DNA of 64,000 nt from Candidatus Omnitrophota bacterium (GTDB lineage: Bacteria; Omnitrophota; Gorgyraeia; Duberdicusellales; 4484-171), in contig WJJJ01000013.1 in the NCBI GenBank assembly GCA_014729775.1, forward strand, positions 2,947 to 66,946, written 5' to 3'. The notes beneath the pieces were generated by a model. It saw only the letters and a list, made by a program, of their open reading frames with translations, did no database searches and had not been told where the DNA came from. Position numbers and translations under genes: made by a program. Below are positions 257 to 37,153 of the stretch, one piece after another (position 1 is the first letter of the stretch; each line of letters starts with the position of its first letter).

Positions 257-1405
257 GTGGGAGATGATGTATCCGTGTGGCTGTTCTGGATATCGTGGTG
301 GTTTCTTTTCTATGCCTATGCCGGGTATCCGCTGCTGTTATGGATGCTCGCGCGCCTGCGTCCCGCTCCGGTACGTGCCGACGCGCAGGATACGCCTCTC
401 GTTTCGCTGATCATCGCGGCCTACAATGAAGAGCGGTCGATCGCGCGGAAACTCGAGGAAACGCTCACCTACGATTACCCGCGGGACCGGCTTGAGGTAA
501 TCGTGGCTTCTGACGGGTCCACCGACGCGACCGACCGTATCGTATCCGGATATGGCGGGCGCGGCGTAAAACTGGTACGCAACGAACCGCGGCAGGGAAA
601 GACCGCCGCGCAGAATAAGGCGGTGGAAACCGCGCGTGGACACATTCTGCTTTTTTCCGACGCGACCACGAAGTGGGATCCGGATACGCTCCGGATGCTG
701 GTACGCAATTTTCATGACGCCGGAGTCGGCTGTGTAGGCGGGGAGGAGTATTTTCTCCCGGAAGGCGGGATTGCCCGTGAAGCGCATTTTTTCTGGAAGT
801 ACGAGAAGTTCATCCGGCGGTGTGAGAGCCGTATCCGGTCGGTGATCGGGGTGAGCGGATGCGTATTTGGTATCCGCCGCGAACTGTACCTGCCGCTCTC
901 GGATTCGCTGATCGAAGATTTCGCCCTGCCGCTGGCGGTTATCCGCTCCGGATTTCGCTGTGTGTGCGAGCCGCGGGCCCGCGCCTATGAGGCGGCCGCG
1001 CCGGATATCTCGGCGGAATTCGCGCGTAAATCGAGGATCGTCAGTAACGGGATGCGGGTGGTTTGGCATATGCGGGCGCTGTTGAATGTAGTCCGTTTTC
1101 CTTTACCGGCCTGGCAGCTTTTTTCGCATAAGATCTGCCGCTGGCTTGCTCCGGTTGCCATGGCTGTCTTGTTCCTAAGCACTCTGTTCGGTCCGGGCGG
1201 CAGCGCGTTCGTCGCAGCGGCCGGCATCGCGCAGTTGATCTTTTATACGTTCGCCTGCACCGGTTTTCTTTTGCGGCTTCGTCCGCGTACACCCGTATGG
1301 ATAAGAATGCCGTATCATTTTTGTCTGATGAACATCGCGGCGCTGTCCGGTCTGGGGAAATTCTTTCGGGGAGAGCGGAAAGTCTTATGGGAGCCGGTGC
1401 GATGA
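257..1405 (+). CDS. glycosyltransferase family 2 (membrane-anchored, cellulose-synthase-like fold)
   Basis: N-terminal TM segment then VSLIIAAYNEE...SDGSTD (GT2 DXD-type core), C-terminal TM helices; GTG start at 257. Confidence 0.8.
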   Translation: MGDDVSVWLFWISWWFLFYAYAGYPLLLWMLARLRPAPVRADAQDTPLVSLIIAAYNEERSIARKLEETLTYDYPRDRLEVIVASDGSTDATDRIVSGYGGRGVKLVRNEPRQGKTAAQNKAVETARGHILLFSDATTKWDPDTLRMLVRNFHDAGVGCVGGEEYFLPEGGIAREAHFFWKYEKFIRRCESRIRSVIGVSGCVFGIRRELYLPLSDSLIEDFALPLAVIRSGFRCVCEPRARAYEAAAPDISAEFARKSRIVSNGMRVVWHMRALLNVVRFPLPAWQLFSHKICRWLAPVAMAVLFLSTLFGPGGSAFVAAAGIAQLIFYTFACTGFLLRLRPRTPVWIRMPYHFCLMNIAALSGLGKFFRGERKVLWEPVR

Positions 1406-1863
1406 AATATGCGTTGGCAGTATGCGCGGTGATCACGCTCATTCTGGTACTGTCGCTTCTCCCAGTGGCGGAGATAAAAACCGCCCTTAAGGGAATGCTG
1501 GAAGATCCCGAGGCGGTAAGGGCCTGGTTCAAGCGGGTCCTGCCGGTGCGGATTACGCCGACGATGGTGCAGAATATTCTGCACGTGCCTTTTTTTGCCG
1601 GGCTGGCGTGGGTGTCGATGCGCGCGTTGACCCGCGGCGAAAGGAGCGGGGTGAAAGCGGTGATGCTGACCGCGGTCATCGTGTGCGGAATTTCAGTGTT
1701 AAGCGAGGGAATGCAGTTTTTTTCGCTGGAGAGAGATCCCGGGTGGGGAGATTTCCTTCTTGATATGGGCGGCGGTATCGGCGGCGCGGGGGTGTTTTTG
1801 ATACGGGAGAGGAGAAAGTTCCGGGGGCGGACCGCGGAATGTGAGCTTCAGAAGGACGAGTGA
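1402..1863 (+). CDS. VanZ-like family membrane protein
   Basis: Four TM segments with [29 protein letters not shown] (VanZ-like E..Q.F..R..D..D..G motif); ATG at 1402 in frame with listed ORF 1297..1863; ATGA overlap with upstream gene. Confidence 0.55.
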
Positions 1864-2381
1864 TGAGGAACTATTTCTGGGAGATCATACGTTACGGATT
1901 CGGTGCCGGCGCGTGGAGATACCGGCTGGAAAAGTGGGCCTGGTACGTGCATGATCATATCGCGCCCCGCGTCCGAATGAAAAAGGAGCGCGGCCATCGT
2001 ATTCATCCCACGGCGTCCCTGCGCTGCGGACACAATATTTCACTGGGAGTAAACGCCCATATCAATCAGTACTGCTGTATTTGGGCCAGTCAGCGGGCGC
2101 GGATCGTGCTGGGCGATAACCTGCTGATGGGACCGGGAGTGAAAATTTTCGCGTCCAACCACGGAACCGGGCGGGAAAAGGTAATGACCGCCCAGCCCTG
2201 GCGGGAGAAAGATGTCGTGATCGGCAATGATGTCTGGCTGGGAGCTAACGCGGTGGTGACTTCCGGGGTGACCATCGGCGACGGCGCGGTCATCGCTGCC
2301 GGAGCGGTTGTGACTAAAGACATTCCGCCGTACACGATTTGCGGCGGGATCCCTGCGAAAGTGTTGAGGGAAAGAACATGA
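1863..2381 (+). CDS. sugar O-acetyltransferase, left-handed beta-helix (hexapeptide repeat) family
   Basis: [48 protein letters not shown] hexapeptide repeats; alt GTG start 1860 overlapping upstream stop. Confidence 0.8.
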
Positions 2382-3502
2382 ACGAAAGAAAACTGCGCGT
2401 CGCGCACGTCCTCGTTGCCTTAGGCGTAGGCGGGATGGAAAAAGTGGTCGTCGATATTATCCGCCGGTTTGACCGGGCGCGTGTGCGGTCGTCGGTGTAT
2501 TGCGTGTGGAAGAAGGGATCGCTGGCGGAAAAACTGGAAAAGGAAGGCATCCCGGTGGAAGTCGTGCAAAGTAACGGATTCCCCCTGAATCTGGCCTGGC
2601 AACTCGCGCGGAGATTCCGTCAGCATCGTTACGACGTGGTACACAGCTACAGCGGAGTGTACCGCGATGCCGCACTCGCGGCGCGGGCCGCGGGAGTGCC
2701 GGTGATCGTGCACACCGATCAGGGCAAATTCTATCCGGACAGCCGCTGGAGCCGGATCAATCACCGGATCTGTTCGGTCCTGCGCGATCAGGTGACCGCG
2801 GTATCCGATGAATTAAAGGAGTTCTTGGTCGGGGAGGTCGGCATTCCCGAACGGAAGGTCATCCGCATTTATAATGGGGTGGATCCTCGCGAACACGCCA
2901 GTAACGGCGCGCGTGACCAAACGCGGCAGGCGCTGGGGATCGGCGCCGATACGCCGGTGATCGGTATCGTGGCCCGCCTGAGCGAGGTGAAAAATCACCC
3001 CCTGCTGTTTCACGCCTTTTCCCTGGTGTGCAAAGAATGCCCGAGGGCGCTGCTGCTCGTTGTGGGCGACGGAAAAAAACGCACTTCTCTGGAGTCGCTG
3101 GCCGGGAAACTGGGGATTACGGATCGCGTCCGGTTTTTGGGGACACGGCGGGACGTCAAGGAGTTACTGCATTGTATGGATATCGTGTGTCTTTCATCAC
3201 GCAGCGAAGGGTTGTCGCTCACGCTGGCCGAAGCCATGGCCAGCGCCAAACCCGTAGTCGCCACCGCGGTCGGCGGCAACACCGAACTCATCCGTGACGG
3301 GATCGACGGCCGGCTGGTGTCGCCGGAACATGAGGAGGAGATGGCCGACGCACTGCGTGAATTGCTGGGAGAGAAAGAGAAACGGGAGCAGATGGGCCGT
3401 CACGCGCGGGAACGGATCAGGGAAGAATTCAATCTGGAAACGATCGTGAAAGAATACGAAAATGTATATCTGAAGCTGAGCGGAAATAAGGGGAGGAGAT
3501 GA
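2378..3502 (+). CDS. glycosyltransferase family 4 (GT-B), EPS sugar transferase (stp-like)
   Basis: [40 protein letters not shown]4 C-terminal signature; ATGA overlap with previous gene. Confidence 0.85.
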
Positions 3503-4620
3503 GGATACTTCATATGATCTCTTCTTCCGGGTTTTACGGCGCGGAACGGGTCGTGCTGGATTTGTTGTGTTTGGCGCGGGATCAGGCGTGGAAGCCGTAC
3601 CTGGTCTGCCTTAAAAGCGCAGAAAAACCGGATCCGGAGCTGTATGGCCGGGCGCAGGAGTGTGATATCGAATCCTACGTGTTCTCCTGCGGGGCGAAGA
3701 TCGACATGGGTACGGTGAGGAAATTGAACGGCTTTGTACGCGCGGAGAATATTGAGTGTATTCACGCGCACGGGTATAAAGCCGACGTGTACGCGTTGAT
3801 GGTGTCCCGTTCCTGCCGGGTTCCGGCAGTGTCTACTTTGCACGGCTGGACAGGAGAGGATCATAAAGTCGGTTTTTACGAACGGATCGACCGCTGGATC
3901 GTGCGCATGTTCGCGCATCTGGTGCCGGTATCGCCGGACATTGAAGAAACGCTGAAACATGCCGGGATCAGCGCCGAAAAGATCACCTGTATCCCTAACG
4001 CGGTCGACACTTCCCGTTTCGATCCGTCAGATGTTGAACCGTTTCGAACCGAGTGGCATCTGGACGGGGCGCTGGTGTTTGGAAGTGTGGGGCGGTTGAG
4101 TCCGGAAAAGGGGCACCGGATGCTTATTCGCGCCTTTTCCCGGATTGCGGCTGAATTCCCGCGGGCGCGTCTGGTGATCACGGGCGAGGGACCTTTGCGG
4201 GACAATCTGCGGCAGCTTGCCTCGGACGAAAAGATTGGGGAAAAGGTGGTGTTTAGCGGACGGCAGACGGAAATGGAACGGGTATACCGTACCATGAACG
4301 TATTCATCCTGCCGTCACTGACCGAAGGGTTGCCGCTGGCCTTGCTGGAAGCGATGAGCATGGCCTGTCCCGTGATCGCGACCCGCGTCGGCGCGATCCC
4401 CGGAGTGGTGGATCCGGCGCAGGGTATGGTAGTGGATCCGGAAGAAACGGCGTTGACCGACGCGATGCGCCGCTTCGCCGCGGACGAATCATTGAGAATC
4501 CGCTGTGCCGCGGCCGCGCGCGCGAAAGTGATACATGAATATGATCTCGCCTCATTTTTTGGAAAATATCAACAAGTGTATGCCCGGGTGTGTCCGCCGC
4601 GGACGGAGAGTCGTGTATGA
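3499..4620 (+). CDS. glycosyltransferase family 4 (GT-B), second EPS sugar transferase
   Basis: EGLPLALLEAMSMACPVIATRVGAIPGVV GT4 signature; ATGA overlap with upstream GT4. Confidence 0.85.
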   Translation: MRILHMISSSGFYGAERVVLDLLCLARDQAWKPYLVCLKSAEKPDPELYGRAQECDIESYVFSCGAKIDMGTVRKLNGFVRAENIECIHAHGYKADVYALMVSRSCRVPAVSTLHGWTGEDHKVGFYERIDRWIVRMFAHLVPVSPDIEETLKHAGISAEKITCIPNAVDTSRFDPSDVEPFRTEWHLDGALVFGSVGRLSPEKGHRMLIRAFSRIAAEFPRARLVITGEGPLRDNLRQLASDEKIGEKVVFSGRQTEMERVYRTMNVFILPSLTEGLPLALLEAMSMACPVIATRVGAIPGVVDPAQGMVVDPEETALTDAMRRFAADESLRIRCAAAARAKVIHEYDLASFFGKYQQVYARVCPPRTESRV

Positions 4621-5456
4621 AAAAGGTGACCAATTTTCTCACGATTGACGTGGAAGAGTATTTTCAGGTCGAGAACTTTAAACGGCATGTTTCCTATGCC
4701 GAATGGGATTCGTTCCCGTCGCGTGTGGTACCGAACACAAGAAAGATCCTCGCTCTGCTCAAACGGCACCGGGTACGGGCGACATTTTTTGTGCTGGGGT
4801 GGGTTGCGGAAAAATTTCCGGAATTGGTACGGGAGATCTCTACGGATGGGCATGAAGTTGCTTCTCATGGCTACCGGCATGAGCTGATCTTCCGGCAGAC
4901 CGCGGAAGAATTTCGGCGTGATGTGCGCGAGGGCAAAGACCTGCTGGAGAATCTGATTCAGAAAAGAGTGTTAGGCTACCGCGCGCCGAGCTGGTCGCTG
5001 ACGCAAAAATCACCGTGGGTATATCAGATATTACGAGAGGAAGGAATTGTTTATGATTCCAGCGTGTTCCCCTATTACCGGTATGACGGCGGATTTCGTG
5101 ACGGCGAGACAAAACCGTATCAGGTCGACGCCGGGCTGTGGGAGTTTCCGGTGTCGACGTTCAGGGTCGCCGGGCAGAATATTCCGTTCGCAGGCGGGGG
5201 CTATTTCCGTCTTTTTCCCTATCGGCTGATCCAATACGGGGTCCGGCGGCTCAATGCGCGGGGACAGCCGGCGATGGTTTACCTGCATCCCTGGGAATTC
5301 GACCCGGGTCAGCCCCGGTTTCAGGCGAGTTACTTAAGTTCGTTCCGGCACTATGTGAATCTGCATACTACGGAAAGAAAACTTGACCGGCTGTTGGGAG
5401 CGCTTTCTTTTTCTTCGCTTGATTCGGCACTCGGCCCGGAGAAGGGGTGCCCGTGA
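4617..5456 (+). CDS. polysaccharide deacetylase, PEP-CTERM-locus subfamily (TIGR03006-like)
   Basis: N-terminus FLTIDVEEYFQVENF and HEVASHGYRHE match the exosortase-locus deacetylase subfamily as I remember it; NodB-type fold. Confidence 0.7.
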   Translation: MKKVTNFLTIDVEEYFQVENFKRHVSYAEWDSFPSRVVPNTRKILALLKRHRVRATFFVLGWVAEKFPELVREISTDGHEVASHGYRHELIFRQTAEEFRRDVREGKDLLENLIQKRVLGYRAPSWSLTQKSPWVYQILREEGIVYDSSVFPYYRYDGGFRDGETKPYQVDAGLWEFPVSTFRVAGQNIPFAGGGYFRLFPYRLIQYGVRRLNARGQPAMVYLHPWEFDPGQPRFQASYLSSFRHYVNLHTTERKLDRLLGALSFSSLDSALGPEKGCP

Positions 5457-6289
5457 TGAAAAAATATGTTAAAAAAATAGTGTCGTGGCTGGCCGTATAC
5501 AGCGGCATCGCGCGAGCGCGGCGGTATTTCCGGCGCAATCTGCCGGTGGTGTTATGCTATCACCGGGTGGTGGACGATCTTGCGCAGGCGCACCAGTATT
5601 CTGATTCGGGAATGGTCGTCTCACGGGAAACCTTCCGCCGCCAGATGGAATTCTTGCGGCGGCATTACTGCGTGATTTCCATGGATACCTTTACCCGGTT
5701 TCTGGACGGTGCCGGGCCGTTGCCTCAATATTCGGTGCTGGTCACGTTTGATGACGGATACAAGGACAACTTCACCTGCGCCTACCCGGTATTCACAGAA
5801 CTGGACCTGCCGGTGACGCTGTTCGTGACCACGGGTTTTATCGACGGCCGGATCGTCCCGGAGTGGGACCGGGAAGTGAATGGACAGCGGCCGGAGATGC
5901 TCTCCTGGGAAGAGATCCGGCGGATGGAGTCCAACGGCGTGACTATCGGCGCGCATACGGTGACCCATCCCGAGTTCGGTACTACCGATCCGAGCCGGGA
6001 GGAGGAGAGGTTGACCGAGATCCCGGCATCCAAACTGCGGCTGGAGGGTGTATTAGGCCAGCCGGTGGAAGTATTCGCCTATCCTAAGGGGAGCATGTCG
6101 ACCGCCGCGCTCAACGCGGTCAAGCAGGCCGGATTTAAAACCGCGTTTGTGGTGCGCCGCCGCGGGGCCGGTCATGACCGGAGGTATTGCTGGCCGCGAA
6201 TACCGGTAAATGAAGGCCGGACGCGGGGGCCGCGCGGGGAAACCGACATGAGGATGTTTGCCTGCGCGCTCGCGGGGATATGGAAATGA
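5456..6289 (+). CDS. polysaccharide deacetylase (NodB homology domain)
   Basis: VLVTFDDGYKDN...TLFVTTGFID...HTVTHP NodB motifs; alt GTG 5447. Confidence 0.8.
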   Translation: MKKYVKKIVSWLAVYSGIARARRYFRRNLPVVLCYHRVVDDLAQAHQYSDSGMVVSRETFRRQMEFLRRHYCVISMDTFTRFLDGAGPLPQYSVLVTFDDGYKDNFTCAYPVFTELDLPVTLFVTTGFIDGRIVPEWDREVNGQRPEMLSWEEIRRMESNGVTIGAHTVTHPEFGTTDPSREEERLTEIPASKLRLEGVLGQPVEVFAYPKGSMSTAALNAVKQAGFKTAFVVRRRGAGHDRRYCWPRIPVNEGRTRGPRGETDMRMFACALAGIWK

Positions 6290-8820
6290 AGGGAACCCAA
6301 CACACAACACAGAGTATCCCGGCGGTAGTGCTGGGTATGACCGCCAACGGGCTGTCGGTCACGCGAAGTTTAGGCCGTCAAGGCGTGCCGGTGACCGGGG
6401 TTGATTCCGGCCGGCATGAGCCGGGGATGTATTCCTGGTACTGCGATCCCCGGGTGTGTCCCGATCCCGGGAACGATCCTGAGGAGTTTCTGCATTGGCT
6501 TCTTGATTTAGGACGGTCATTCGCCCGGCGCCCGGTGCTGTATCTTACGTCCGATAAATATATCGGCGTGGTATCCCGCGCGCGGGAATCTTTGGAAAAA
6601 TATTTTTCATTTTTACTTCCGGACAAAGAGATCGTGGATGCGTTTTTGGACAAGGAACGCACCGCGGAACTCGCCGCGCGTCACGGCGCGCGTCATCCGC
6701 GTACATTCAAAGTACACGAGGAACGTGATCTGCGGGAGGTGTTGTCCATGGTCGCGTATCCGGTGATCTTAAAGCCGCGGTTTTCTCACGTGTGGAGCCG
6801 GTGTTACGGGGGGCAGAAGGTAATCATTGCAAATACTGGCCAAGAATTAAAGGATAAATATTTATACTTGCGAACCCAGTCACAAGAAGTTTTGGTTCAG
6901 GAAATCATCCCTGGACCTGATCAGAATGTGCATTTATTTATGGCATATTACAACGAGTATTCCGTATCCCTGGCGTTGTTCTGTTGCCGGAAACTGCGCC
7001 AGTATCCGCCGCATTTTGGTGTTGGGGCATTAATGGAAAGTATAGAAGAACCGTCAATCCAATCTGTGGGGGAGAGATTCTTAAGGTCAATAGGATATAG
7101 AGGACTTGTGGGGGTTGAATATAAGGTGGATGAACGTACTGGTGAACCGGTTCTTATTGAAGTTAATATGCGGACGAGTCTTGGCGGAGAAATAAGCGTT
7201 CAATCGGGGGTTGATCTTCCGATGATCATGTATCGCCATTTGGCCTGCGGCGAGTCTGAGCCGGACAAAAAGCACTTTTCATTCGTGCCCGGCGTGAAGC
7301 TGATGAACCTTGATCTCGATACCGGGAGCTTTCTTCGTTATCGTCGGGAAGGGGGAATGACACTTGGAGCATGGTTTCTTTCTTTTCGCGCACCGAAACT
7401 GGCCCATACCTATTTTGCCGCGGATGATTTGCGTCCATTTTTCGCGGTCTATTCCCGTTTTCTCAGAAAGATAGGCAGGAAGGTATTTGCGCGCGCGGGC
7501 ACTGCGAGCGCGCCGGCGCGGCGGGTTCCGGCGGTGGTGCTGGGTATGACCGCGAACGGGCTGTCGGTCGCGCGCAGCCTGGGCCGCAGAGGCATTCTTG
7601 TGATCGGGCTTGATTCGGTTGCCGACAGTATAGGATTCAGATCCCGGTATTGCCGCGCCGCGTGCTGTCCGGATGTCCTTCGGGAGGAAGCGGGATTTGT
7701 CGAGTTCCTTGAGCACGTGGGAAAACATTACCGGGAAAAGCCGGTGCTGATCATGACTGCCGATAGCTATGTTGACTGCGTGTCCCGGCATGAGGCGCGG
7801 CTGAAACGTTCTTTCCGGTTCACGATCCCGCGCCGGGAACAGGTTTCGGCGTTCCTGGACAAACGCCGCACCTACGAAGTCTTTCGGGAATACGGGCTCG
7901 CGTGTCCGCGTTCATTCCTGATCGCCTCGGCGGACGGCGCCGTGCGTGCGGCGGCGAAGGTGACGTTTCCCTGCGCGCTCAAGCCCGCCCGCTCGCATGT
8001 CTGGCGTCAAAAGTACGGCGGGAAAAAACTCTTCGTGGTCCGGTCGCCCCGGGAGCTTCGGGAACTGGCGATTAAGCTGATCGCACAAGGGCAGGAGATC
8101 TTCGTTCAGGAGCTTATCCCCGGAGCGGATAACTTCATCTATACCTTTGTCGCCTATTATGACCGGCAGGGCCGGGCGCTGGGGATCTTCACCAAGCAGA
8201 AGATACGCCAGTATCCAATAAAGTTCGGGATCGGCTGTTTTCACGAATCGGGCCAAAATCCGGAAGTACGGGAAAAAGGCCTGCGTTTTCTTTCGGCGCT
8301 GGGCTATACCGGCTTCGCGGGGATCGAATTCAAATACGACTCGCGGGAGAAAAGGTATAAAGCCGTGGAGGTCAATATCCGGACGCTGATGAGCGGGGAA
8401 CTCGCGGTGCGCTCGGGAGTCGATTTTCCTTATTTGTATTATCGCGATCATACGCAGCAGGCGGTTACTCCGGTCACGGCGTTCCGGGAAGGGGTCAAAT
8501 TCGTGCATGAAGACTTAGATCCGGCGTCGTTTTTCCGTTACCGGGCGCGCGGCGAACTCACCCTGCGCCAATGGCTCGCGACCTACCGCGGAGAAGTTCA
8601 TTGCACATATTTTCGTGTAGACGATCCGTTGCCTTTTTTGTTTATGTCCTGCAGGATAGTCCGGACCGCGTGGTGCAAATTAAGGAAATACGCGAGGTTC
8701 GGATTGTTACGATTGAGGGCCGGGCCTGTCGCTTGGAAAAGGGATTCCGTGCCGCGTTTGGATCGGGTGGCTCAGTTTGATGAACCTGAGGTGACAGAAG
8801 GAAAAAAGGCGGGAATATAA
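6280..8820 (+). CDS. tandem double ATP-grasp (COG3919-like carboxylate-amine ligase) fusion protein, 846 aa
   Basis: Two ~400-aa halves each start with P(A)VVLGMTANGLSV(T/A)RSLGR(Q/R)G and carry an ATP-grasp core (EYKVDERTGEPVLIEVNMR / EFKYDSREKRYKAVEVNIR); the repeat is visible at DNA level (6313-6378 vs 7519-7584). Confidence 0.7.
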   Translation: MEMKGTQHTTQSIPAVVLGMTANGLSVTRSLGRQGVPVTGVDSGRHEPGMYSWYCDPRVCPDPGNDPEEFLHWLLDLGRSFARRPVLYLTSDKYIGVVSRARESLEKYFSFLLPDKEIVDAFLDKERTAELAARHGARHPRTFKVHEERDLREVLSMVAYPVILKPRFSHVWSRCYGGQKVIIANTGQELKDKYLYLRTQSQEVLVQEIIPGPDQNVHLFMAYYNEYSVSLALFCCRKLRQYPPHFGVGALMESIEEPSIQSVGERFLRSIGYRGLVGVEYKVDERTGEPVLIEVNMRTSLGGEISVQSGVDLPMIMYRHLACGESEPDKKHFSFVPGVKLMNLDLDTGSFLRYRREGGMTLGAWFLSFRAPKLAHTYFAADDLRPFFAVYSRFLRKIGRKVFARAGTASAPARRVPAVVLGMTANGLSVARSLGRRGILVIGLDSVADSIGFRSRYCRAACCPDVLREEAGFVEFLEHVGKHYREKPVLIMTADSYVDCVSRHEARLKRSFRFTIPRREQVSAFLDKRRTYEVFREYGLACPRSFLIASADGAVRAAAKVTFPCALKPARSHVWRQKYGGKKLFVVRSPRELRELAIKLIAQGQEIFVQELIPGADNFIYTFVAYYDRQGRALGIFTKQKIRQYPIKFGIGCFHESGQNPEVREKGLRFLSALGYTGFAGIEFKYDSREKRYKAVEVNIRTLMSGELAVRSGVDFPYLYYRDHTQQAVTPVTAFREGVKFVHEDLDPASFFRYRARGELTLRQWLATYRGEVHCTYFRVDDPLPFLFMSCRIVRTAWCKLRKYARFGLLRLRAGPVAWKRDSVPRLDRVAQFDEPEVTEGKKAGI

Positions 8821-12278: not shown

Positions 12279-12383
12279 ATGTTCTGTCGGGGATCTTTAC
12301 ACAGCGACGAATAATTTAACAGCCCGCAGATCTTTTTCGGGATACCTTTCTTTCCAGCCTTGATATTTTTCTCCCGGGTGAAT

Positions 12384-28422: not shown

Positions 28423-28619
28423 GTGGTAAGGTGAAACTGACATGTATGGTGTGCGCCCTGTGCGTCGCGTTTCTCACCGGATGTAAAGGCGGCGGTGGAG
28501 GAGGAGATCAGTATTCCTATCTGCAAGATATTCCTCATCAGCCTGAACCGGCGACAATCGTGATGTTCGGACTCGGCGCACTGGGCGTGTTCGGCGCGCG
28601 TAAGTTTAAAAAGAAATAA
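28419..28619 (+). CDS. mini PEP-CTERM lipoprotein (66 aa: lipobox signal peptide + Gly run + PEP-CTERM sorting signal)
   Basis: RBS AAGGAGGG; MSGKVKLTCMVCALCVAFLTGC (lipobox LTGC) KGGGGGGDQYSYLQDIPHQ PEPATIVMFGLGALGVFGARKFKKK. Confidence 0.7.
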   Translation: MSGKVKLTCMVCALCVAFLTGCKGGGGGGDQYSYLQDIPHQPEPATIVMFGLGALGVFGARKFKKK

Positions 28620-28648
28620 CATTGTTTGTGATCCAGAATTCATGAGTC

Positions 28649-28687
28649 GCAAAAGAGAAGAATAGTCTTCTCTTTTGCGCTTTTATA
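28649..28687 (+). terminator. rho-independent terminator
   Basis: GCAAAAGAGAAGA-atagt-CTTCTCTTTTGC perfect 13-bp stem followed by GCTTTTAT. Confidence 0.8.
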
Positions 28688-30145: not shown

Positions 30146-31569
30146 AGCGTGCCGGGTTCTCGATTTCATGGGGATGGATTACTGCTGTCGCCGCGGTGCT
30201 GGCGCTTTCGGGTTGTGTGGATCCCGGCTACCGGGCCGAACGGCTTTTTTGGCAGGCCGAACGCAAGGCAGATGAAGTATTCAAAAAAGGCATCGATAAT
30301 TTTACCGACGAGGATTTTGAAACGCTTATCGGGCTTTACCGGAAAGTAGTGGAAGCCGCCCCTCTTGAAGACGAAAGCTCCCAGGCGCAGTTCATTATTG
30401 CCGATCTCTATACCTACCAGCATAAATACCGGAAAGCACAGCAGCAGTTACTGCAGATAGAGAATAATTTTTTTACCAAACCGGTGATCGCTTCCCGTGC
30501 GAAATTTTTCATGGCTAAGCTTTACGAAAAAAGGGAGAAGCCGGAGGAAGCAATTCAATATTACGAGGAATTAATGTCTAAGTATCCGGTGACGCCGATC
30601 GGGCTCACCCTGCCGCGGTACTTAATGACAAAATATAAAGAAGAGGGGAGTGCCGGGAAAGCCCGGGAGTTTTACGACCGCGCGATTACCCACTACCAGG
30701 ATCTTCTGTCGCAGTATACCGATACCGCGGTCGCGCCGACGGTGTACGACGCGTTAGCCGAATTGTATCTGGCGGAAGGTGAACCGGAAAAAGCCCTGGA
30801 GATGTGGGATCGGATCATTCTTGATTATCCGGAAAGCGGCTATATTCCTAAAGCGTATACCTCAAAAGCGGAAACGTATGTCCGGCAGTTATCTCACATG
30901 AAGAACGCGCAAGAGGTGTATGAGCAGTTCAGCGAACGCTATCCTGATTTTCCTCAGCGGCCGGAAATCGAACTGCGGCTGGCCCGGCTGTATCTTCAGG
31001 ATGACAAGACAGCCAAAGCCAAACGCATCTATCGCGAGATCATCAATGAATTTCCAGAAAAGTCGACCCTCCTCGCGCAGGCCTATGCGGGACTTGCCGA
31101 ATGTTATCAGAAAGAAGCGAATACCGGGAAAATGGAGGAAACCTACGGGTACATTCGGGAACATTTTCCCGACTCACAGGCGGCGTTCATGATACCATTT
31201 TTGACCGCCCGGTACTATGAGCAAACGGGGTTTCATCAGAAAGCTCAACGCGGATATCGGCAGGCGGCAAAGAAATACGAACAATATCTGGCGAAGCATC
31301 CTGATCCTCGCGTAAAAAAAGAAGCGGCAAATGTGCTTACATTATGTTATATTAAGACAAACCGGGTGAGCGACGCGGTGGCGTTACTGGAAAAGCTCTC
31401 AACGGCGTTTCCCCGTGATCCGATGTATTTATTCGATCTTGCAACCTTGTACGTAAATCTGCATAAGCCGGAAAAAGCCCGGGAGGTTTACCAAACCATC
31501 CAGGAGAAATATCCGACGAATTATTTCGTGAACCGGCTCGCGCAGCGGAGGATGAATACGCTTCGGTAG
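30142..31569 (+). CDS. TPR-repeat lipoprotein (half-size PrsT-like, paralogue)
   Basis: Lipobox LALSGCVD; shares motifs with previous gene (YPVTPIGL..P.YL, ASRAKF..AKLYE); GTG start overlapping upstream stop. Confidence 0.7.
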   Translation: MKRAGFSISWGWITAVAAVLALSGCVDPGYRAERLFWQAERKADEVFKKGIDNFTDEDFETLIGLYRKVVEAAPLEDESSQAQFIIADLYTYQHKYRKAQQQLLQIENNFFTKPVIASRAKFFMAKLYEKREKPEEAIQYYEELMSKYPVTPIGLTLPRYLMTKYKEEGSAGKAREFYDRAITHYQDLLSQYTDTAVAPTVYDALAELYLAEGEPEKALEMWDRIILDYPESGYIPKAYTSKAETYVRQLSHMKNAQEVYEQFSERYPDFPQRPEIELRLARLYLQDDKTAKAKRIYREIINEFPEKSTLLAQAYAGLAECYQKEANTGKMEETYGYIREHFPDSQAAFMIPFLTARYYEQTGFHQKAQRGYRQAAKKYEQYLAKHPDPRVKKEAANVLTLCYIKTNRVSDAVALLEKLSTAFPRDPMYLFDLATLYVNLHKPEKAREVYQTIQEKYPTNYFVNRLAQRRMNTLR

Positions 31570-31612: not shown

Positions 31613-32473
31613 ATGAATAAGAAGATCTCATTTGCCGGTATCGAACTTACCCTCAGGACGTTGCGGCGGATTGTGCTTATGAGCGCGCTTTTCGCGGCGG
31701 TGTATTTTCCCGTAATCCCCCATTTTATCTCGCGGTTTTCCGCCCGTGATTCCTATTATTCTCATGGTTTCTTGATCCCTGTGGTTTCGCTGTATTTGGT
31801 GTTTCGCAGCCGGGAAATACTGGCCCGTATACCCACATGGCCGCATCCGGCCGGTTTCGCGCTGATTCTTTTAGGGCTGGCAATGTATCTGATCGGGTAT
31901 GTGCTTCAGATCAATTTCGGGATGTACGCGAGCCTGCTGCCGGTGCTCTTCGGATTAGCGCTGTATTTGGGGGGATCGCAATACTTCCGGGTATTGTTCT
32001 TTCCCATTCTATTTTTGGGATTCATGCTGCCGCTGCCGCAAGTATTCATTATCGGCGCTTCATTCCGGTTGAAACTCATGGCCGCGCAGGCAGCGACGTT
32101 CCTGTCGCGAATGATGGGAATAGAGGCAGTGCAAAATGGATCGATGATTTACTATCCGGGCGGGCAGATACTTGTCGGAGATCCCTGCAGCGGGTTGAGG
32201 TCGTTGATTGCATTTATCGCGCTCGGGGCGCTGTGTGCTTATCTGGCACGGGGAAGTACGATCAAACGGGTGTTACTGTTTGTTCTTGCCGTGCCGGTCG
32301 CGCTTTTCTCAAATCTGTTGAGGCTGACCTTTCTGGTCGGGGTCGGCTATGTCTACGGCGAAAAAATCGCTTCGGGGACGGTGCATGATGTTTCAGGGAT
32401 GCTGGTGTTTGTACTCGGTTTTCTCTGTTTTGTGGGTCTTATCCGGCTGTTAGGCTGCCGGATTGAGGTGTGA
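31613..32473 (+). CDS. xrtA: exosortase (EpsH/XrtA-type archaeosortase/exosortase family)
   Basis: 8 TM helices; conserved Cys in GDPCSGLRSLIAF and downstream Arg in NLLRLTFLVG, the exosortase catalytic signature; XrtA subtype assigned from context only. Confidence 0.85.
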   Translation: MNKKISFAGIELTLRTLRRIVLMSALFAAVYFPVIPHFISRFSARDSYYSHGFLIPVVSLYLVFRSREILARIPTWPHPAGFALILLGLAMYLIGYVLQINFGMYASLLPVLFGLALYLGGSQYFRVLFFPILFLGFMLPLPQVFIIGASFRLKLMAAQAATFLSRMMGIEAVQNGSMIYYPGGQILVGDPCSGLRSLIAFIALGALCAYLARGSTIKRVLLFVLAVPVALFSNLLRLTFLVGVGYVYGEKIASGTVHDVSGMLVFVLGFLCFVGLIRLLGCRIEV

Positions 32474-32474
32474 A

Positions 32475-33116
32475 ATGCGCAAAAATATTTTTCGTTCTTT
32501 TCTGACCGTTCCCTATTTTCAGGTCGCCTGCCTGTTCGCAGCTGCGGCATTGTTGATCGGGAAGATGGAACTGTCTGCCCGTTCCTCTCCGGCTCCCTCT
32601 CAAATTTCGTTCCCGATGCAGATTGGAGAATGGAAAGGAAAAGACCTGGAGGTTGACGAAAGTACCTATGAGATCCTGGAAACGCGGGACGTGATCTCCC
32701 GGGAATATACCGATCCCGACGGCGATACGCTGTATTTTTCGCTCGTGTACGCGCAGGATACCCGGCACAGCTTTCATCCTCCCGAACTCTGTTATGTCGG
32801 GGGCGGTGTGGAGGTCATGGGCAAGGAAAAGGCCGAAATCCCGCTCGATCAGGATCAATTAACCGTAAACGTCCTGTACATGAAAGCCGGGTATGGAAAC
32901 CTGCGCGCCTGGTACTGGTTTTCTGCCGGTTCGGAATTCACCGACAGCTATGTAGGCCAGCAAATACGGCTTTTTTTCGACGTCATGCGCGGGGAAAAAC
33001 CGTCCGGCGCGCTGATCAGAGTCTCGACCCCTTCTCCGGAATCGGCACCCAAGGCCGAATCCTTCATCCGAAAGCTCATCCCTCCTCTCAAACGGACCCT
33101 CGAAAAAATAGGTTGA
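32475..33116 (+). CDS. epsI: EpsI-family exosortase-associated protein
   Basis: Single TM then FHPPELCYVGGGVEV (H.PE.CY.G.G EpsI motif); ATG 32475 (alt TTG 32463), adjacent to exosortase stop. Confidence 0.8.
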   Translation: MRKNIFRSFLTVPYFQVACLFAAAALLIGKMELSARSSPAPSQISFPMQIGEWKGKDLEVDESTYEILETRDVISREYTDPDGDTLYFSLVYAQDTRHSFHPPELCYVGGGVEVMGKEKAEIPLDQDQLTVNVLYMKAGYGNLRAWYWFSAGSEFTDSYVGQQIRLFFDVMRGEKPSGALIRVSTPSPESAPKAESFIRKLIPPLKRTLEKIG

Positions 33117-33141
33117 TAAAGAATTTTTGAAATGTTATACT
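33113..33141 (+). promoter_or_regulatory. sigma-70-like promoter (TTGATA-N17-TATACT)
   Basis: -35 TTGATA 33113-18, -10 TATACT 33136-41, 17-bp spacer, 25 nt upstream of ATG 33166. Confidence 0.5.
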
Positions 33142-33165: not shown

Positions 33166-34374
33166 ATGGAGTCAAATCCGTACGAAAATCCAGTAAAAGA
33201 ATTTCTTACGGTCAGTCTGGACCGCTGTATGCAGGAAGTAAATGCCGGTTCGGGCTCGATCTTTCTCGTGGACGAGGTGACCCAGGACCTTGTCCTTGAA
33301 ATTATCCACAGTAAAGAAAGGCGTAATCTTGAAGGAACCCGCACCAAGCTCGGAGAACGGGTGTCCGGCAGGGTCGCGCAGGAACGAAAACCCTTTCTAG
33401 TGGCGAATATTGATTCCGAACCGTCGTTCGGTACCTTTCCTCGTTATTCTCACTACCAGTCTAAATCGTTTTTGTCGGTTCCCCTCGAATCATCGGGCAC
33501 TCTGCTTGGAGTGGTGAATCTCACGGAAAAGGGGGACGGGACCGTATTTGATAATGATGATCTTGATGCCGTGATGCTTATCGCCAGACAGCTGGGGATT
33601 GCGCTCGAGAAACTGAAACTATTTTCCGCCTCTCAGAAAACCGAATATTTGCGGCTGAAAGCCGAACGGGAGAATCTTTCCCGGTCAATCGAACAGTATA
33701 AGAAATTCTCTTCGCTCGGGAAATTCATCGGCGGGCTCGTACACGAGATCAATAACCCGCTGGACGGAGTCATGCGATACATAAACTTAAGCATGGACCG
33801 CGTGCAGTCCGACGAGGTGCTCAAAGAGTATCTGCAGGAGTCGCAGAAGGGATTGCAGCGTATCGCTCAATTCGTACGTTCATTGCTCGATTTTTCCTGG
33901 AGCATGTCCTCGGCGGGCCGGGAGATCGACGTGAACCGGATCTTTGAAGAAACCCGTTTCCTGTATGACGGTGAATTGCGTTCCGGCAATGTGTCGGTGG
34001 AAACGGAACTGGACTCCAATCTGCCCAAGATCCCGGATTACGGGCTTAAGATTGTGCTGAATAATCTTTTCAAGAATGCCCGGGAGGCGATGCAGCCGGA
34101 GGGCGGGGTAATACGGGCCAAGACGCGTAAGATTCCCGGCGGTATTATGGTGGAGTTTTCCGATACGGGTGCCGGCATTCCTGCCGAGGTAAAAGGAAGG
34201 ATTTTTGAACCTTTTTTCACCACGAAGCAGATGGGAGAAGGGTCCGGGCTGGGACTGGCGTTGGTGAGTGAAATCGTAGAGAAATATAAAGGAACGATCC
34301 ACGTGGACAGCGGCCGGGGAGCCGGCACTACTTTTCGTATTTTCCTTCCCGCCTCAAATTTTCAGACGACATGA
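33166..34374 (+). CDS. cytoplasmic GAF-domain sensor histidine kinase
   Basis: GAF-like N-terminus, H-box LVHEINNPLD, N-box LNNLFKNAREA, G-boxes DTGAGI / GSGLGL. Confidence 0.8.
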   Translation: MESNPYENPVKEFLTVSLDRCMQEVNAGSGSIFLVDEVTQDLVLEIIHSKERRNLEGTRTKLGERVSGRVAQERKPFLVANIDSEPSFGTFPRYSHYQSKSFLSVPLESSGTLLGVVNLTEKGDGTVFDNDDLDAVMLIARQLGIALEKLKLFSASQKTEYLRLKAERENLSRSIEQYKKFSSLGKFIGGLVHEINNPLDGVMRYINLSMDRVQSDEVLKEYLQESQKGLQRIAQFVRSLLDFSWSMSSAGREIDVNRIFEETRFLYDGELRSGNVSVETELDSNLPKIPDYGLKIVLNNLFKNAREAMQPEGGVIRAKTRKIPGGIMVEFSDTGAGIPAEVKGRIFEPFFTTKQMGEGSGLGLALVSEIVEKYKGTIHVDSGRGAGTTFRIFLPASNFQTT

Positions 34375-35756
34375 AATCGCACAACAAGATCCTGATCGTT
34401 GATGATGAACCGCTCACCCGCAAATCACTGCAGGAAATTCTCAGGAAAGACGGGTATGCGGTTTCGTCTGCCGGGGACGGGGAAAACGCGTGTGAAATAG
34501 TGGCACGCGAAGTGCCGGATGTGGTCCTGACCGATTTTAAACTGCCCGGCATGGACGGTCTGCAATTGTTGAAAAAAATAAAAGAACAGTATCCGGGAAT
34601 CGAGGTCGTTCTTATTACCGCTTACGGTTCCATAGAGCACGCGGTAAAAGCCATGCGCGAAGGGGCGTTCGATTACGTCACCAAGCCGATCATTGATGAT
34701 GAAATCAAAATTATCATCCGCAGGGTATTCGAGCAGAAGAAAATTCTTGATGAGAATGAGTTCCTGAAACGGCAGCTTACCTCGCATGCGCGGGAGAAGT
34801 TCCACACGATTATCGGCAAGAACCCCCGCATGCAAAAAATTTATAATTTGATTGAAACCGTCGCGCCGACCAATGCGATTATTTTGATTCAGGGCGACAG
34901 CGGGACGGGAAAACGGGTAGTGGCTCACGCGATTCACCGTGCGGATTATCATCGGAAAGACCATCCCTTGATCGAAGTCAGTTGTGGGGCATTGCCGGAG
35001 AATCTGCTTGAGAGCGAGTTGTTCGGCCACGTCAAGGGCGCGTTTACCGGAGCGATTAAGGATAGGCAGGGAAGATTCGAAGCCGCCCATGAGGGGACGA
35101 TCTTTCTCGATGAGATCGATACCTTCAGTCCGAAACTGCAGGTGAAGCTTTTGCGTATCTTGCAGGAAGGGGAATTCGAACGGGTAGGAGATACCAAAAC
35201 GATTCAGGTCAACGTCCGGGTCATTGCCGCGACAAATCAGGATTTAAAAGAATTGATTCAGCAGGGAACATTCCGGGAGGATCTATATTACCGGCTTAAC
35301 GTGATCCCCATACATCTGCCTCCTTTGCGGGAACGCCGGGACGACATCCCCCTGCTTATTCAGCACTTTTTGGAAAAAGGCGGCCGGAAACTTTCGGTGA
35401 AACCAAAACAGTTTTCCCCGGAAGCGATGGGGATATTGTGCAGTTACGAATGGCCGGGCAACGTGCGCGAACTGGAGAACGTGGTGGAACGCGCCTTAAT
35501 TCTTTGCAAGTCGAAAACCGTCGGCCCTGATGATCTGCCTGAAGCCGTGCAGAATTCACCGGTGACCGCAGATACCGGCAGTGTGGCTGATGAAAGCGTT
35601 TCGCTTAAAGACGCGCTTCGGGTGTCTGAGAAAAAGATCATCGCCGAGGCGCTGGAAAGATGCGGATGGAACCGGAAGAAAGCGTCTTTGATGTTAGGAA
35701 TTAACCGTACCACGCTTTATAATAAGATGAGAGACTACGGTTTGCTGGATGAATAG
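34371..35756 (+). CDS. sigma-54-dependent (NtrC-family) response regulator
   Basis: REC (ILIVDDE...D), AAA+ GDSGTGKR Walker A, ESELFGHVKGAFTGA, C-terminal HTH; ATGA overlap with kinase. Confidence 0.85.
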   Translation: MKSHNKILIVDDEPLTRKSLQEILRKDGYAVSSAGDGENACEIVAREVPDVVLTDFKLPGMDGLQLLKKIKEQYPGIEVVLITAYGSIEHAVKAMREGAFDYVTKPIIDDEIKIIIRRVFEQKKILDENEFLKRQLTSHAREKFHTIIGKNPRMQKIYNLIETVAPTNAIILIQGDSGTGKRVVAHAIHRADYHRKDHPLIEVSCGALPENLLESELFGHVKGAFTGAIKDRQGRFEAAHEGTIFLDEIDTFSPKLQVKLLRILQEGEFERVGDTKTIQVNVRVIAATNQDLKELIQQGTFREDLYYRLNVIPIHLPPLRERRDDIPLLIQHFLEKGGRKLSVKPKQFSPEAMGILCSYEWPGNVRELENVVERALILCKSKTVGPDDLPEAVQNSPVTADTGSVADESVSLKDALRVSEKKIIAEALERCGWNRKKASLMLGINRTTLYNKMRDYGLLDE

Positions 35757-35761
35757 GCTTT

Positions 35762-37153
35762 TTAACCGCGGATTCTTTTCCGGCGATGATAGGGAGGGAT
35801 CCTCAATTCTTCCCGGTATTTTGCCACTGTTCTTCGTGCGATTCTTATACCCTTGCCACTCAGCTGCTGCGCGATTTGCGAGTCTTTGAGGGGCTCATCC
35901 GCCGTTTCTTCTTCAATCAGCGAAAGGATTTCTTCTTTTACCATTTCCTGGGAAATATCGGCGCCGTTGCTTGAAGGAAAAGATTTGGTAAGGAAAAAAT
36001 CAAGCCGGTAGATGCCGTAGGGCGTGGAAATATATTTGTTATTTACTACCCGGCTTACGGTCGATTCGTTGCGGTGTGCTTTCAGGGCGATATCCTTGAG
36101 TGTTAACGGATTGAGCCGGGCCGGATCTCCCTGAAGAAAGAATTCTTTTTGATGTTCCACGATAAGGGTCCCGATCCTGCGTATGGTTTCTTCTCTTTTC
36201 ATCACCGCTTTGATTACCGTGAGAGCGTATTTCACTTTTCCGCGAATGTACCGTTTCGTTTCGGGAGAAAGCTCTCCTTCCCTGAGCAATTCCAGGTAAC
36301 GGCTGCTCACCCGTAGTCGGGGCAGGAACGAATTGTTTACCCTGATTTCCAGACTGCTTTTATGCTGTTCTACGGTAAGGTCTGGTTGAGAGGCGGCGTT
36401 AAACTGCCGGGTAAAGGCAGTGAATTTGTCCCCGGGGCGGGGAGCGAGAGAGGAAATTTCCTTTTTCGCGGCAAGTACCTCTCGATGCGGGATTTTGAGC
36501 TTCCTGGAGATCGCCGCGATTTTATTTTTCGCGAGTTCGGGGAGACAGGAAGTAATAATACGATAGGCGGGAGAGTCTTTTTTCCCTCTGCGTTCCAGCT
36601 GAAGCAGAAGACTCTCTTTTAGATTACGCGCCCCGACTCCCGGAGGATCGCAGGTTTTTAACGTTTCTATCGCCGTTTCTATTTCTTCCGGAGAGAACGG
36701 GGTATGATGTTCGTTGCGCAGGAAGAGCGAAATTTCCTCAGAAGAGAGATTGAGATAACCGTTTTCATCTAAATTGCCCACCAGAAATTCCAGGATCAGC
36801 TGCTGACGGGAAGAGAGAGGCTGGATACGAATTTGACTGAGTAAATGCTCGGGTAGCGTGCGGGAGGACGTGATCAGCGATTCGGTGTAATTGCGCCGTT
36901 TGGCGGCTTCTTCCGGAGACAGACCCAGCGCAATATAGGGGTTTTCCTGTTCGGGGCGCGTGAGCTGTTCGGTTTGCTTCAGTAAATCCCTTTCCGGAGG
37001 ATCTATACATTCCAGTATCGGATTTTCTTCTGCCTGTGCTTCAAGAAAATGGCGTAAATCGGTTACCGGGAGCTGCAAAATACGCAGAAACTGACGCATT
37101 TGCGGGGTAAGTGCCAGCGTCTGGGTGAGTTTCTGACTTTGTTTAATTTCCAT
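35762..37153 (-). CDS. rpoN: RNA polymerase sigma-54 factor
   Basis: Gln-rich N-terminal region I, C-terminal HTH and RpoN box ARRTVAKYREELRIP. Confidence 0.9.
   Translation of the reverse strand: MEIKQSQKLTQTLALTPQMRQFLRILQLPVTDLRHFLEAQAEENPILECIDPPERDLLKQTEQLTRPEQENPYIALGLSPEEAAKRRNYTESLITSSRTLPEHLLSQIRIQPLSSRQQLILEFLVGNLDENGYLNLSSEEISLFLRNEHHTPFSPEEIETAIETLKTCDPPGVGARNLKESLLLQLERRGKKDSPAYRIITSCLPELAKNKIAAISRKLKIPHREVLAAKKEISSLAPRPGDKFTAFTRQFNAASQPDLTVEQHKSSLEIRVNNSFLPRLRVSSRYLELLREGELSPETKRYIRGKVKYALTVIKAVMKREETIRRIGTLIVEHQKEFFLQGDPARLNPLTLKDIALKAHRNESTVSRVVNNKYISTPYGIYRLDFFLTKSFPSSNGADISQEMVKEEILSLIEEETADEPLKDSQIAQQLSGKGIRIARRTVAKYREELRIPPYHRRKRIRG

Follow-up and report, generated by a model that had tools for sequence, protein, structure and literature searches.

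The first 37 kb of a 64-kb stretch of DNA (hereafter the window, contig WJJJ01000013.1) encode an exosortase with its partner EpsI, PEP-CTERM proteins, enzymes of extracellular polysaccharide (EPS) synthesis, two kinase–regulator pairs and the sigma-54 gene rpoN. The window comes from an uncultured Omnitrophota bacterium known from a metagenome-assembled genome (MAG). We consider it likely that the block at 257-37153 represents a chromosomal exosortase/PEP-CTERM/EPS locus that is typical of one Omnitrophota clade and driven by sigma-54, with rpoN probably being an ordinary sigma-54 gene. Judged by conserved gene order, the presence of two regulator pairs and a nearby sigma-54 gene is the normal layout for this bacterial group.

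Every plausible gene at 257-37153 was called from an open reading frame (ORF) map and from NCBIfam and Pfam scans, and scores below are given as hidden Markov model bit scores against the curated family cut-off. The claimed genes and coordinates of a first-pass annotation of the same DNA were correct by the ORF map and both databases, and its description of a nearly unidirectional block holds as well, given that only three genes (a FeeM-like gene, a PilZ gene and rpoN) lie on the minus strand.

Conserved organization of the locus

An exosortase-alignment scan that retained one genome per species yielded 80 related loci with 10-kb flanks, which were compared by tblastn using the proteins of the window. 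EpsI directly follows the exosortase in all 80 loci. TPR lipoproteins recur in about 60 of them, the orphan membrane protein encoded at 27616-28422 in 51 and the priming transferase in 42, and in 32 the second of the two bacterial enhancer-binding proteins (bEBPs) is encoded downstream of the exosortase, nearly always accompanied by its kinase.

These genes occur in two arrangements. Type A loci, the closest relatives (44-55% exosortase identity), share the order of the window, namely transferase, membrane protein, TPR, exosortase, EpsI, kinase, regulator and a convergent rpoN. Type B loci (38-45% identity) instead run from a deacetylase and a family 2 glycosyltransferase (GT2) through exosortase, EpsI and a sigma-54 promoter to the transferase, PEP-CTERM genes, membrane protein, TPR, kinase and regulator. 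Locus L018 repeats the whole window order from PrsK to rpoN, with PrsK, PrsR (which passes TIGR02915 at 568.6), a promoter, two cargo genes, a second promoter, transferase, membrane protein and TPR preceding the exosortase, and EpsI, kinase, regulator, one extra gene and rpoN following it. The architecture had been annotated as unusual, and beside Proteobacteria it is odd; within this clade, however, it is standard, as the identical order of L018 illustrates.

Three loci whose records are labelled Methanosarcinales archaeon, Babeliales and Ratteibacteria (L024, L029 and L044, respectively) also carry an Omnitrophota-type exosortase locus, and these labels are probably binning or labelling errors in public records.

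Exosortase, EpsI and the adjacent machinery

The exosortase gene (31613-32473, plus strand) passes two family models (TIGR02602, 166.2 against a cut-off of 105.55; TIGR04178, 69 against 23), and PF09721 is recorded on an identical database protein. Residues C192, R237 and H258 are invariant in an alignment of 29 sequences, and Haft 2006 (PMC1569441) gives a Cys/Arg/His triad as the proposed catalytic residues of exosortases. EpsI is encoded by its own gene (32463-33116, plus strand; TIGR02914, 103.6 against 42.8). The assignment of exosortase and EpsI to 31613-33116 is thus borne out, with both proteins above their family cut-offs.

The same cannot be said of the XrtA label. The exosortase reaches 173.8 on the XrtA model TIGR03109, whose cut-off is 208, and scores 161 on XrtW and 155 on XrtD. 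Ten clade relatives score 162-195 on XrtA, and neither they nor the window protein reach the cut-off of any named Xrt subtype. The next-best exosortase homologues are about 54% identical and come nearly all from Omnitrophota. By these scores, the exosortase belongs to an unnamed Omnitrophota clade that is always accompanied by a separate EpsI. The first-pass annotation had counted an exosortase unlike XrtA, or prsK/prsR-like genes with generic scores only, as grounds against its reading. The exosortase is indeed not of the XrtA subtype, whereas PrsR passes a PEP-CTERM-specific model.

Upstream of the exosortase, on the same strand, four genes recur in the related loci. The polyprenyl-phosphate sugar phosphotransferase, or priming transferase (26717-27598), matches Pfam Bac_transf at 227.7 bits and stays below the cut-offs of TIGR03025 (294.5 against 295.55) and of the XrtA-system model TIGR03013 (265 against 393). 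It is followed by a conserved polytopic membrane protein with a CysZ/choline-transporter-like fold, which received no family assignment (27616-28422), and by two TPR lipoproteins (28700-30145 and 30142-31569) that have TPR Pfam matches and lipobox-like N-termini. The lipoproteins, of about 480 residues each, occupy a PrsT-like position; their identification as PrsT was rejected on their TIGR02917 scores (45.9 and 61 against 312).

PEP-CTERM cargo

Seven cargo genes lie in an array on the plus strand. Six of the seven cargo ORFs match TIGR02595 above its cut-off, the seventh is recognised from its tail PVIPEPATFLLFLFGLFPLFRCRCRG, and signal-like N-terminal segments are present in all seven proteins. 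Cargo 1 (12463-13248; TIGR02595, 27.4 against 16) has a ribosome-binding site (RBS) and an ATG at 12463 and forms a single-gene unit with a terminator at 13300-13324 (10-bp stem). Cargo 2 (13590-14336), cargo 3 (14333-15010), cargo 4 (15037-15780) and cargo 5 (15809-16447), each with a TIGR02595 match, are separated by short gaps and read as one unit (13590-16447), within which the site scan returned no -24/-12 site between the genes. Cargo 6 (16682-17575) is PepA-like (NF033554 floc_PepA, 75.8 against 80, with an alignment that starts at residue 81 of the long ORF). Its ATG at 16682 is preceded by an RBS, and a terminator with a 13-bp stem follows at 17603-17632. The promoter called P3 below lies inside the long GTG-started ORF (16448-17575), and that start is therefore wrong; the likely true starts are 12463 for PEP1, 13590 for PEP2 and 16682 for PEP6. 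Cargo 7 (17652-18512) scores 17.5 against 20.7 on the Pfam PEP-CTERM model.

The annotated count of seven cargo genes is right in that all seven have PEP-CTERM tails and short in that an eighth gene was missed. The eighth gene (28419-28619, plus strand), found by direct sequence reading and an ORF scan, encodes a 66-residue Gly-rich lipoprotein, which has the lipobox LTGC and six consecutive glycines and ends in the tail QPEPATIVMFGLGALGVFGARKFKKK. The ATG at 28419 overlaps the stop codon of the membrane-protein gene (ATGA overlap), and the gene appears to be translationally coupled to this upstream gene. Only about 20 residues would remain in the mature protein. A strong terminator (28648-28679, 14-bp stem) follows just before the TPR genes, and similar small ORFs are found at the matching position in L024 and L003.

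Sigma-54-type promoters

The plus strand of the whole 64 kb was searched with the -24/-12 pattern TGGCAC-N5-TTGC. The four best matches, designated P1-P4, fall 30-75 nt 5' of the start codons of three cargo genes (1, 2 and 6) and of the transferase. At a distance of 80-225 nt, each is preceded by a TGTC-N7-TT(T/G)ACA-type element, which fits a bEBP binding site. P1 combines an enhancer-like TGTCGGGGATCTTTACA (12285-12301) with the -24/-12 element TGGCATGACTTTTGCT (12384-12399), about 64 nt from the cargo 1 ATG at 12463. P2 has the tandem motifs TGTCGGTTTTTTTTACG (13393-13409) and TGTCACGCAATTTTACA (13411-13427) ahead of TGGCATGGATGTTGCT (13515-13530), about 60 nt from the cargo 2 ATG at 13590. 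P3 has TGTCGGTATCTTTGACA (16449-16465) and the variant AGTCGGATATGTTAACA (16467-16483) ahead of the perfect element TGGCACAGGAATTGCT (16592-16607), about 75 nt from the cargo 6 ATG at 16682. At P4, the palindromes TGTCGAAAAGATTGACA (26448-26464) and TGTTGATATTTATAGACA (26525-26542) precede TGGCATGGAATCTGCT (26672-26687), about 30 nt from the transferase ATG at 26717. All four promoters lie on the plus strand. At the level of sequence, the cargo genes and the priming transferase thus carry sigma-54-type promoters.

The upstream motif is enriched in the window. The 17-nt pattern TGTC-N7-TTTACA with at most one mismatch occurs in eight copies, against an expectation of 2.0, and none of 100 shuffles reaches eight. 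Five of the eight copies lie upstream of P1-P4 (12285, 13393, 13411, 16449 and 26448), with the variant at 16467 in addition. Furthermore, four of the six -24/-12 sites that score at least 13 have the motif 30-260 nt upstream, where 0.014 per site would be expected by chance.

A 17-nt motif ending in TTTACA, a spacer and a -24/-12 element are present at P1, at P2 (twice) and at P3. Haft 2006 (PMC1569441) describes a "motif 1" of 17 nt that ends in TTTACA, is repeated in some cases and precedes a spacer and then a sigma-54 site, and ties it by phylogenetic profile to PrsR, PrsK and PrsT. In that study, motif 1 is found in Proteobacteria only, with a mean spacer of 63 and a maximum of 92 (PMC1569441). 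The spacers at the cargo promoters of the window measure 82-126 nt and so differ from the proteobacterial mean, lying at or beyond the published maximum.

The promoter of the transferase is also conserved. Among the 42 loci with a transferase homologue, 29 have a -24/-12 site just upstream of it, and 25 of these 29 promoters have TGTY-N9-10-RACA palindromes 125-270 nt upstream, compared with 2% of background windows. By eye, six loci (L045, L052, L059, L070, L075 and L076) also show two to four direct repeats TGTC(C/T)(A/T) at a spacing of about 10-11 bp. In type B loci, the direct repeats lie about 100-160 nt 5' of the transferase promoter, between the upstream palindrome and the -24/-12 site. 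An attempt to tell the target sites of the two bEBPs apart by motif was given up, since the motifs of P1-P3 and of P4 are too alike.

Two distinct kinase–regulator pairs

The first pair consists of a PrsK-like membrane sensor histidine kinase (8825-10903, plus strand) and PrsR, a PEP-CTERM-box sigma-54-dependent response regulator (10866-12278, plus strand). The PrsK/PrsR annotation of 8825-12278 holds fully for PrsR, which passes TIGR02915 (581.2 against 502.6), and in part for the kinase, whose best match is TIGR02916 but at 228 against 300. The kinase aligns with this model over its full length (16-655 to 11-679) and has multiple transmembrane segments in its N-terminal half.

The second pair, annotated as a GAF-kinase/NtrC-type pair at 33166-35756, is confirmed in its domains. 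It comprises a histidine kinase with GAF, HisKA and HATPase domains by Pfam and NCBIfam and no predicted transmembrane segment (33166-34374, plus strand), and a sigma-54-dependent response regulator that scores as a generic AtoC/NtrC type (34371-35756, plus strand). The first-pass annotation regarded this pair as duplicating the bEBP input. PrsR and the second bEBP are only 42% identical, and the two kinases have only the catalytic core in common. On the PrsR model, with its cut-off of 502.6, second-bEBP orthologues of type A and type B loci reach only 402-412, and their best match is AtoC, again below its cut-off. The helix-turn-helix of the second-bEBP family, LGINRTTLYNKM, differs from that of the PrsR group. 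By these comparisons, the second bEBP is a distinct family across the phylum, separate from PrsR. A recent duplication of PrsK/PrsR was rejected on the 42% identity, the different sensor domains and the separate orthologous group, and the notion of a duplicated input is accordingly abandoned.

Where epsI ends, just ahead of the kinase start at 33166, there is a sigma-70-like site (33113-33141; TTGATA-17-TATACT, extended -10 TG). It is a consensus match only, and could allow P4-independent basal expression of the second pair.

rpoN and its linkage to the locus

The rpoN gene (35762-37153, minus strand) passes TIGR02395 (377.8 against 277.35), so that the annotated rpoN in cis and in convergent orientation is upheld. 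PF00309, PF04963 and PF04552 are recorded on an identical RpoN protein, and the RpoN box ARRTxAKYR is invariant in the alignment. The gene is convergent with the second bEBP gene, the stop codons being 5 bp apart, divergent from yqeY (37362-37877, Pfam YqeY) and apparently monocistronic. The canonical rpoN neighbourhood, which is typical of Proteobacteria, is lptB-rpoN-hpf-ptsN. By NCBIfam and Pfam assignment of its neighbours, rpoN of the window has the bEBP gene and yqeY beside it and not lptB, hpf or ptsN. A minus-strand ORF at 37290-37862 was rejected as an lptB-like candidate because it has no family match and overlaps a plus-strand ORF that clearly encodes YqeY.

The linkage of rpoN to the exosortase locus is frequent in type A loci, where rpoN follows the regulator in 11 of the 13 loci with enough sequence to be informative, and rarer in type B loci (3 of 14). 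Conversely, the GAF kinase–bEBP pair adjoins four of seven Omnitrophota rpoN genes whose loci were inspected individually. In three of these rpoN-anchored loci (L163, L164 and L166), rpoN is convergent with the pair and a PocR-GAF gene lies in between. In L162 (11946-16304), kinase, regulator and rpoN are co-directional and are followed by MerR, Poly_export (Wza), GNVR, AAA_22 and ParA-type EPS export genes. Since the trio is kept in four of the seven rpoN-anchored loci and unlinked in three, the kinase-regulator-rpoN trio is, by gene order, a recurrent but not a universal unit.

The intervening PocR-GAF gene occupies 12087-13082 in L163, 1934-3040 in L164 and 11448-12449 in L166, and the window is without it. 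The exosortase operon of the MAG that contains L162 is found on another contig (L010).

The adjacency of rpoN might reflect inherited gene order without function, the second pair being a generic AtoS/AtoC-type system for something unrelated. Such neutrality would agree with the second pair matching generic families only, and below their cut-offs (AtoC, 502 against 714; AtoS, 178 against 646), and with the location of rpoN elsewhere in some Omnitrophota. However, in 32 loci that span 38-55% exosortase identity and two gene orders, the pair lies within the exosortase operon or closes it, and in 25-29 loci the operon of the pair is preceded by a sigma-54 promoter that has a conserved palindrome upstream. 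In addition, the adjacency of rpoN outlasts rearrangement, as in L162. A control set of 80 rpoN loci from other lineages, which among the matches listed are all at most 38% identical, contained no exosortase or EpsI within 10 kb of rpoN in any locus (0 of 80 among the matches listed). We therefore regard neutral adjacency as quite improbable.

At the other extreme, rpoN could encode a sigma factor dedicated to the exosortase/EPS programme in a reduced-genome clade, with GAF kinase, bEBP and rpoN as a cassette that co-evolves with the locus; the first-pass annotation had spoken of the locus as carrying "its own sigma factor". The trio persists in varied orientations, even apart from the exosortase (co-directional in L162, convergent in L163, L164 and L166), the linkage is found in 11 of the 13 closest loci, and rpoN of the window lacks lptB, hpf and ptsN neighbours. 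Furthermore, all four strong -24/-12 sites of the 64 kb lie within the locus and none in the other 27 kb. These observations are weakened by the missing linkage in three of the seven rpoN-anchored loci and 11 of the 14 type B loci, and conserved synteny does not by itself demonstrate functional exclusivity. A dedicated sigma factor is thus unlikely, albeit clearly less so than neutral adjacency. Much the same holds for a broader proposal, which we rate as rather doubtful: sigma-54, the GAF kinase and the bEBP would form a linked cassette that works largely or wholly for exosortase/PEP-CTERM/EPS beside a PrsK/PrsR "PEP-CTERM box" regulon, previously taken to be restricted to Proteobacteria, and exosortase, EpsI, CysZ-fold protein, TPR pair and mini lipoprotein would constitute a new system. 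The ordinary role remains the most likely one for rpoN, which would be the sigma-54 gene of the cell, held by clade-conserved linkage beside a main regulon, and not an extra dedicated copy.

Proposed mechanism

By analogy with the families concerned, the eight secreted proteins, at whose C-terminus a PEP motif is combined with a hydrophobic helix and a basic tail, would be exported through Sec. The exosortase, a membrane cysteine transpeptidase with the conserved Cys, Arg and His residues, should cleave the cargo together with EpsI. The cleaved cargo would then be handed to a cell-surface polysaccharide layer, which the glycosyltransferases, deacetylases, acetyltransferase and priming transferase of the locus are predicted to make.

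Transcription can be assigned to the four promoters in a similarly provisional manner. P1 would drive cargo 1, P2 cargo 2-5, and P3 cargo 6 and possibly cargo 7. P4 would drive three genes, from the priming transferase through the CysZ-fold membrane protein to the mini PEP-CTERM lipoprotein, and read-through of the terminator may extend this transcript into TPR1, TPR2, exosortase, EpsI, kinase and regulator. We propose that the membrane kinase PrsK acts via PrsR on the cargo promoters, because the motif upstream of them corresponds to motif 1 of the literature, which is 17 nt long and ends in TTTACA. The cytoplasmic GAF kinase may act via the second bEBP on the transferase/machinery promoter P4, because that bEBP and the promoter travel together across the phylum.

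Several observations weigh against this interpretation of the locus. The window exosortase stays under the cut-off of the XrtA model, and so do the PrsK-like kinase on TIGR02916 and the priming transferase and the two GT4 glycosyltransferases on their curated models. Genes for polymerisation and export are absent from the window. The motif at P4 also fits the PrsR-type pattern with one mismatch, which makes the assignment of bEBPs to promoters ambiguous. The terminator between the mini cargo gene and TPR1 means that P4 may not drive the machinery or the second pair, and the sigma-70-like site ahead of the second kinase likewise means that P4 may not drive this pair. Finally, rpoN is unlinked in three of the seven rpoN-anchored loci, including the complete chromosome CP070807.1, where it lies about 177 kb from the exosortase locus. 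With these points taken into account, a sigma-54-driven locus of the clade with an ordinary rpoN is still the reading that we favour.

Comparison with known exosortase systems

Proteobacterial XrtA/PEP-CTERM EPS loci are known from floc formation in Aquincola and Zoogloea (PMC9850573), and PrsK, PrsR and PrsT are described in Haft 2006 (PMC1569441). Like these loci, the window combines an exosortase, EpsI and many PEP-CTERM genes with EPS enzymes, and it shares with them PrsR (which passes its model), a PrsK-like kinase and an XrtA-system deacetylase. Its cargo genes are likewise preceded by a 17-nt TTTACA motif, a spacer and a -24/-12 element, and one of them is PepA-like. Unlike them, the window has an exosortase of an Omnitrophota clade that scores below the XrtA cut-off, and PrsT is missing, its position being taken by two TPR lipoproteins of about 480 residues. 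A second conserved GAF kinase/bEBP pair and a linked rpoN are further differences, and there is no FemAB-like gene and no Wza/Wzc set within the window. In Janthinobacterium, by contrast to the window, the locus tag of rpoN is far from those of prsK and prsR (PMC9860564).

Another related system is the methanolan cluster of Methylobacillus sp. 12S, in which EpsH and EpsI are separate adjacent genes and a priming sugar transferase is present, as in the window. That cluster is not known to include an array of cargo genes, a second bEBP pair or a linked rpoN. The names EpsH and EpsI come from this methanolan (eps) cluster, as cited in Haft 2006 (PMC1569441).

The subtypes named in NCBIfam (XrtB, XrtD, XrtV, XrtW and others) are lineage-restricted clades with hallmark neighbours, and the exosortase of the window resembles them in this respect. 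The window protein and its ten relatives differ in staying below all of their cut-offs and in a new hallmark set, which consists of the CysZ-fold membrane protein, the paired TPR lipoproteins, the GAF kinase/bEBP pair and rpoN.

The sigma-54 dependence of exosortase systems is already established, and the basic wiring is not new. New are the lineage-specific additions: the conserved second kinase/bEBP pair, the often-linked rpoN, the unnamed exosortase subtype and the accessory proteins. Literature searches returned no relevant paper that joins Omnitrophota or Omnitrophica to exosortase or PEP-CTERM, and no description of this locus type. The present analysis adds a delimited, phylum-conserved version of the exosortase system in a group of uncultured nanobacteria and suggests that the "PEP-CTERM box" reaches beyond Proteobacteria. 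The locus also provides a marker set for a new curated exosortase subtype. The locus offers four promoters with their upstream sites, two bEBP families that differ in their recognition helices and, within a few kilobases, the sigma-54 gene itself; a heterologous host could be used to reconstruct this circuit. The organism is not growable, which makes it a weaker model than had been hoped at first.

Polysaccharide enzymes of the left part

The left part of the locus encodes EPS enzymes on the plus strand. It was annotated as starting at 257, which is not so: the window begins within another ORF (1-267, plus strand), which is read in frame +1, is cut by the left end of the window, reaches its stop at about 265-267 and overlaps the start of the GT2 gene. 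The operon therefore begins upstream of the window. The GT2-family membrane glycosyltransferase (257-1405; Pfam Glycos_transf_2, 83 bits) is weakly PgaC/IcaA-like with all NCBIfam scores below cut-off, and its homologue lies directly upstream of the exosortase in type B loci. It is followed by a VanZ-like protein (1297-1863; NF037970, 30.2 against 20) and a hexapeptide-repeat O-acetyltransferase (1860-2381; several NCBIfam families, all below cut-off). The best match of both family 4 glycosyltransferases (GT4) is TIGR03088, a PEP-CTERM/XrtA-system glycosyltransferase model with a cut-off of 409, on which the first (2339-3502) scores 275.8 and the second (3499-4620) 164.3. On TIGR04063 they also stay below the cut-off (114.7 and 98.3 against 442).

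The next gene encodes an XrtA-system polysaccharide deacetylase that passes TIGR03006 (4590-5456; 349.8 against 276.2), and a second deacetylase resembles the N-terminal domain of PgaB/IcaB (5447-6289; Pfam Polysacc_deac_1, 90.6 bits). The homologue of the latter is located two genes upstream of the exosortase in type B loci. The two deacetylase genes adjoin the gene of a tandem (double) ATP-grasp protein (6280-8820), which has two ATP-grasp stretches by NCBIfam and Pfam. This protein had been proposed to replace the usual FemAB-like enzyme, and among the scanned genes of the window none matches TIGR03019 (FemAB-like). Such a replacement is suggested by adjacency only. Among the 80 loci, a single one (L071) has a homologue of the ATP-grasp protein no more than 10 kb from the exosortase.

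Wza, Wzc, a Wzx flippase and a Wzy polymerase were not found anywhere in the 64-kb window, among the 33 locus genes and the downstream genes scanned. With these genes missing and an operon that continues off the left edge, the locus cannot be called self-contained, as it had been.

Lipid-type module, transposase homologue and flanks

Between the cargo array and P4, the segment 19543-26327 is a putative lipid module, with all of its genes assigned by NCBIfam and Pfam. On the plus strand it encodes an RND/MMPL (HAE3) transporter (19543-21924), a ThiF-like protein (adenylyltransferase, 21908-22801), a LolA-like protein (22838-23623) and a DUF1302-like protein (23553-25001), and on the minus strand a FeeM-type N-acyl amino acid synthase (25027-25848) and a PilZ protein (25845-26327). 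Parts of the module recur beside the exosortase operon in L008, L020 and L031. The NCBIfam model PRK14852 matches a fusion of FeeM-like and ThiF-like proteins, which suggests that the two act together.

A connection between N-acyl amino acid synthases and exosortase loci has been reported before (Craig et al. 2011, as cited in PMC7293339), and the window agrees with it in having the FeeM-type gene inside the locus. The window differs in the pairing of FeeM with PilZ and in the nearby ThiF-like, RND/MMPL, LolA-like and DUF1302-like genes. The FeeM-type protein gave no match to the NCBIfam exosortase-associated acyltransferase model.

A homologue of Y1 (IS200/RAYT-like) transposases (18758-19468, plus strand; NF047646, 68.2 against 80; Pfam Y1_Tnp, 32.5 bits) precedes the lipid module. 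This homologue speaks for a horizontally acquired mobile genomic island, as does the GC content, which drifts along the block from about 0.58 to 0.50, and "island" was the term first applied to it. However, no tRNA, integrase/recombinase or composition break was found at the block at 257-37153, including its edges, where direct repeats were not searched for. GC skew is positive and continuous over the window, and the GC content has no step at 257 or 37153. In addition, the left edge lies inside an operon, and the layout is vertically conserved over many Omnitrophota species. A mobile island was rejected on the lack of a tRNA, an integrase and a composition step and on the conserved synteny, and we regard it as very unlikely.

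The 27 kb beyond rpoN contain unrelated housekeeping genes. Downstream, at 42640-44831, an HDOD-domain protein is followed by a PAS histidine kinase, and both seem unrelated to the locus.

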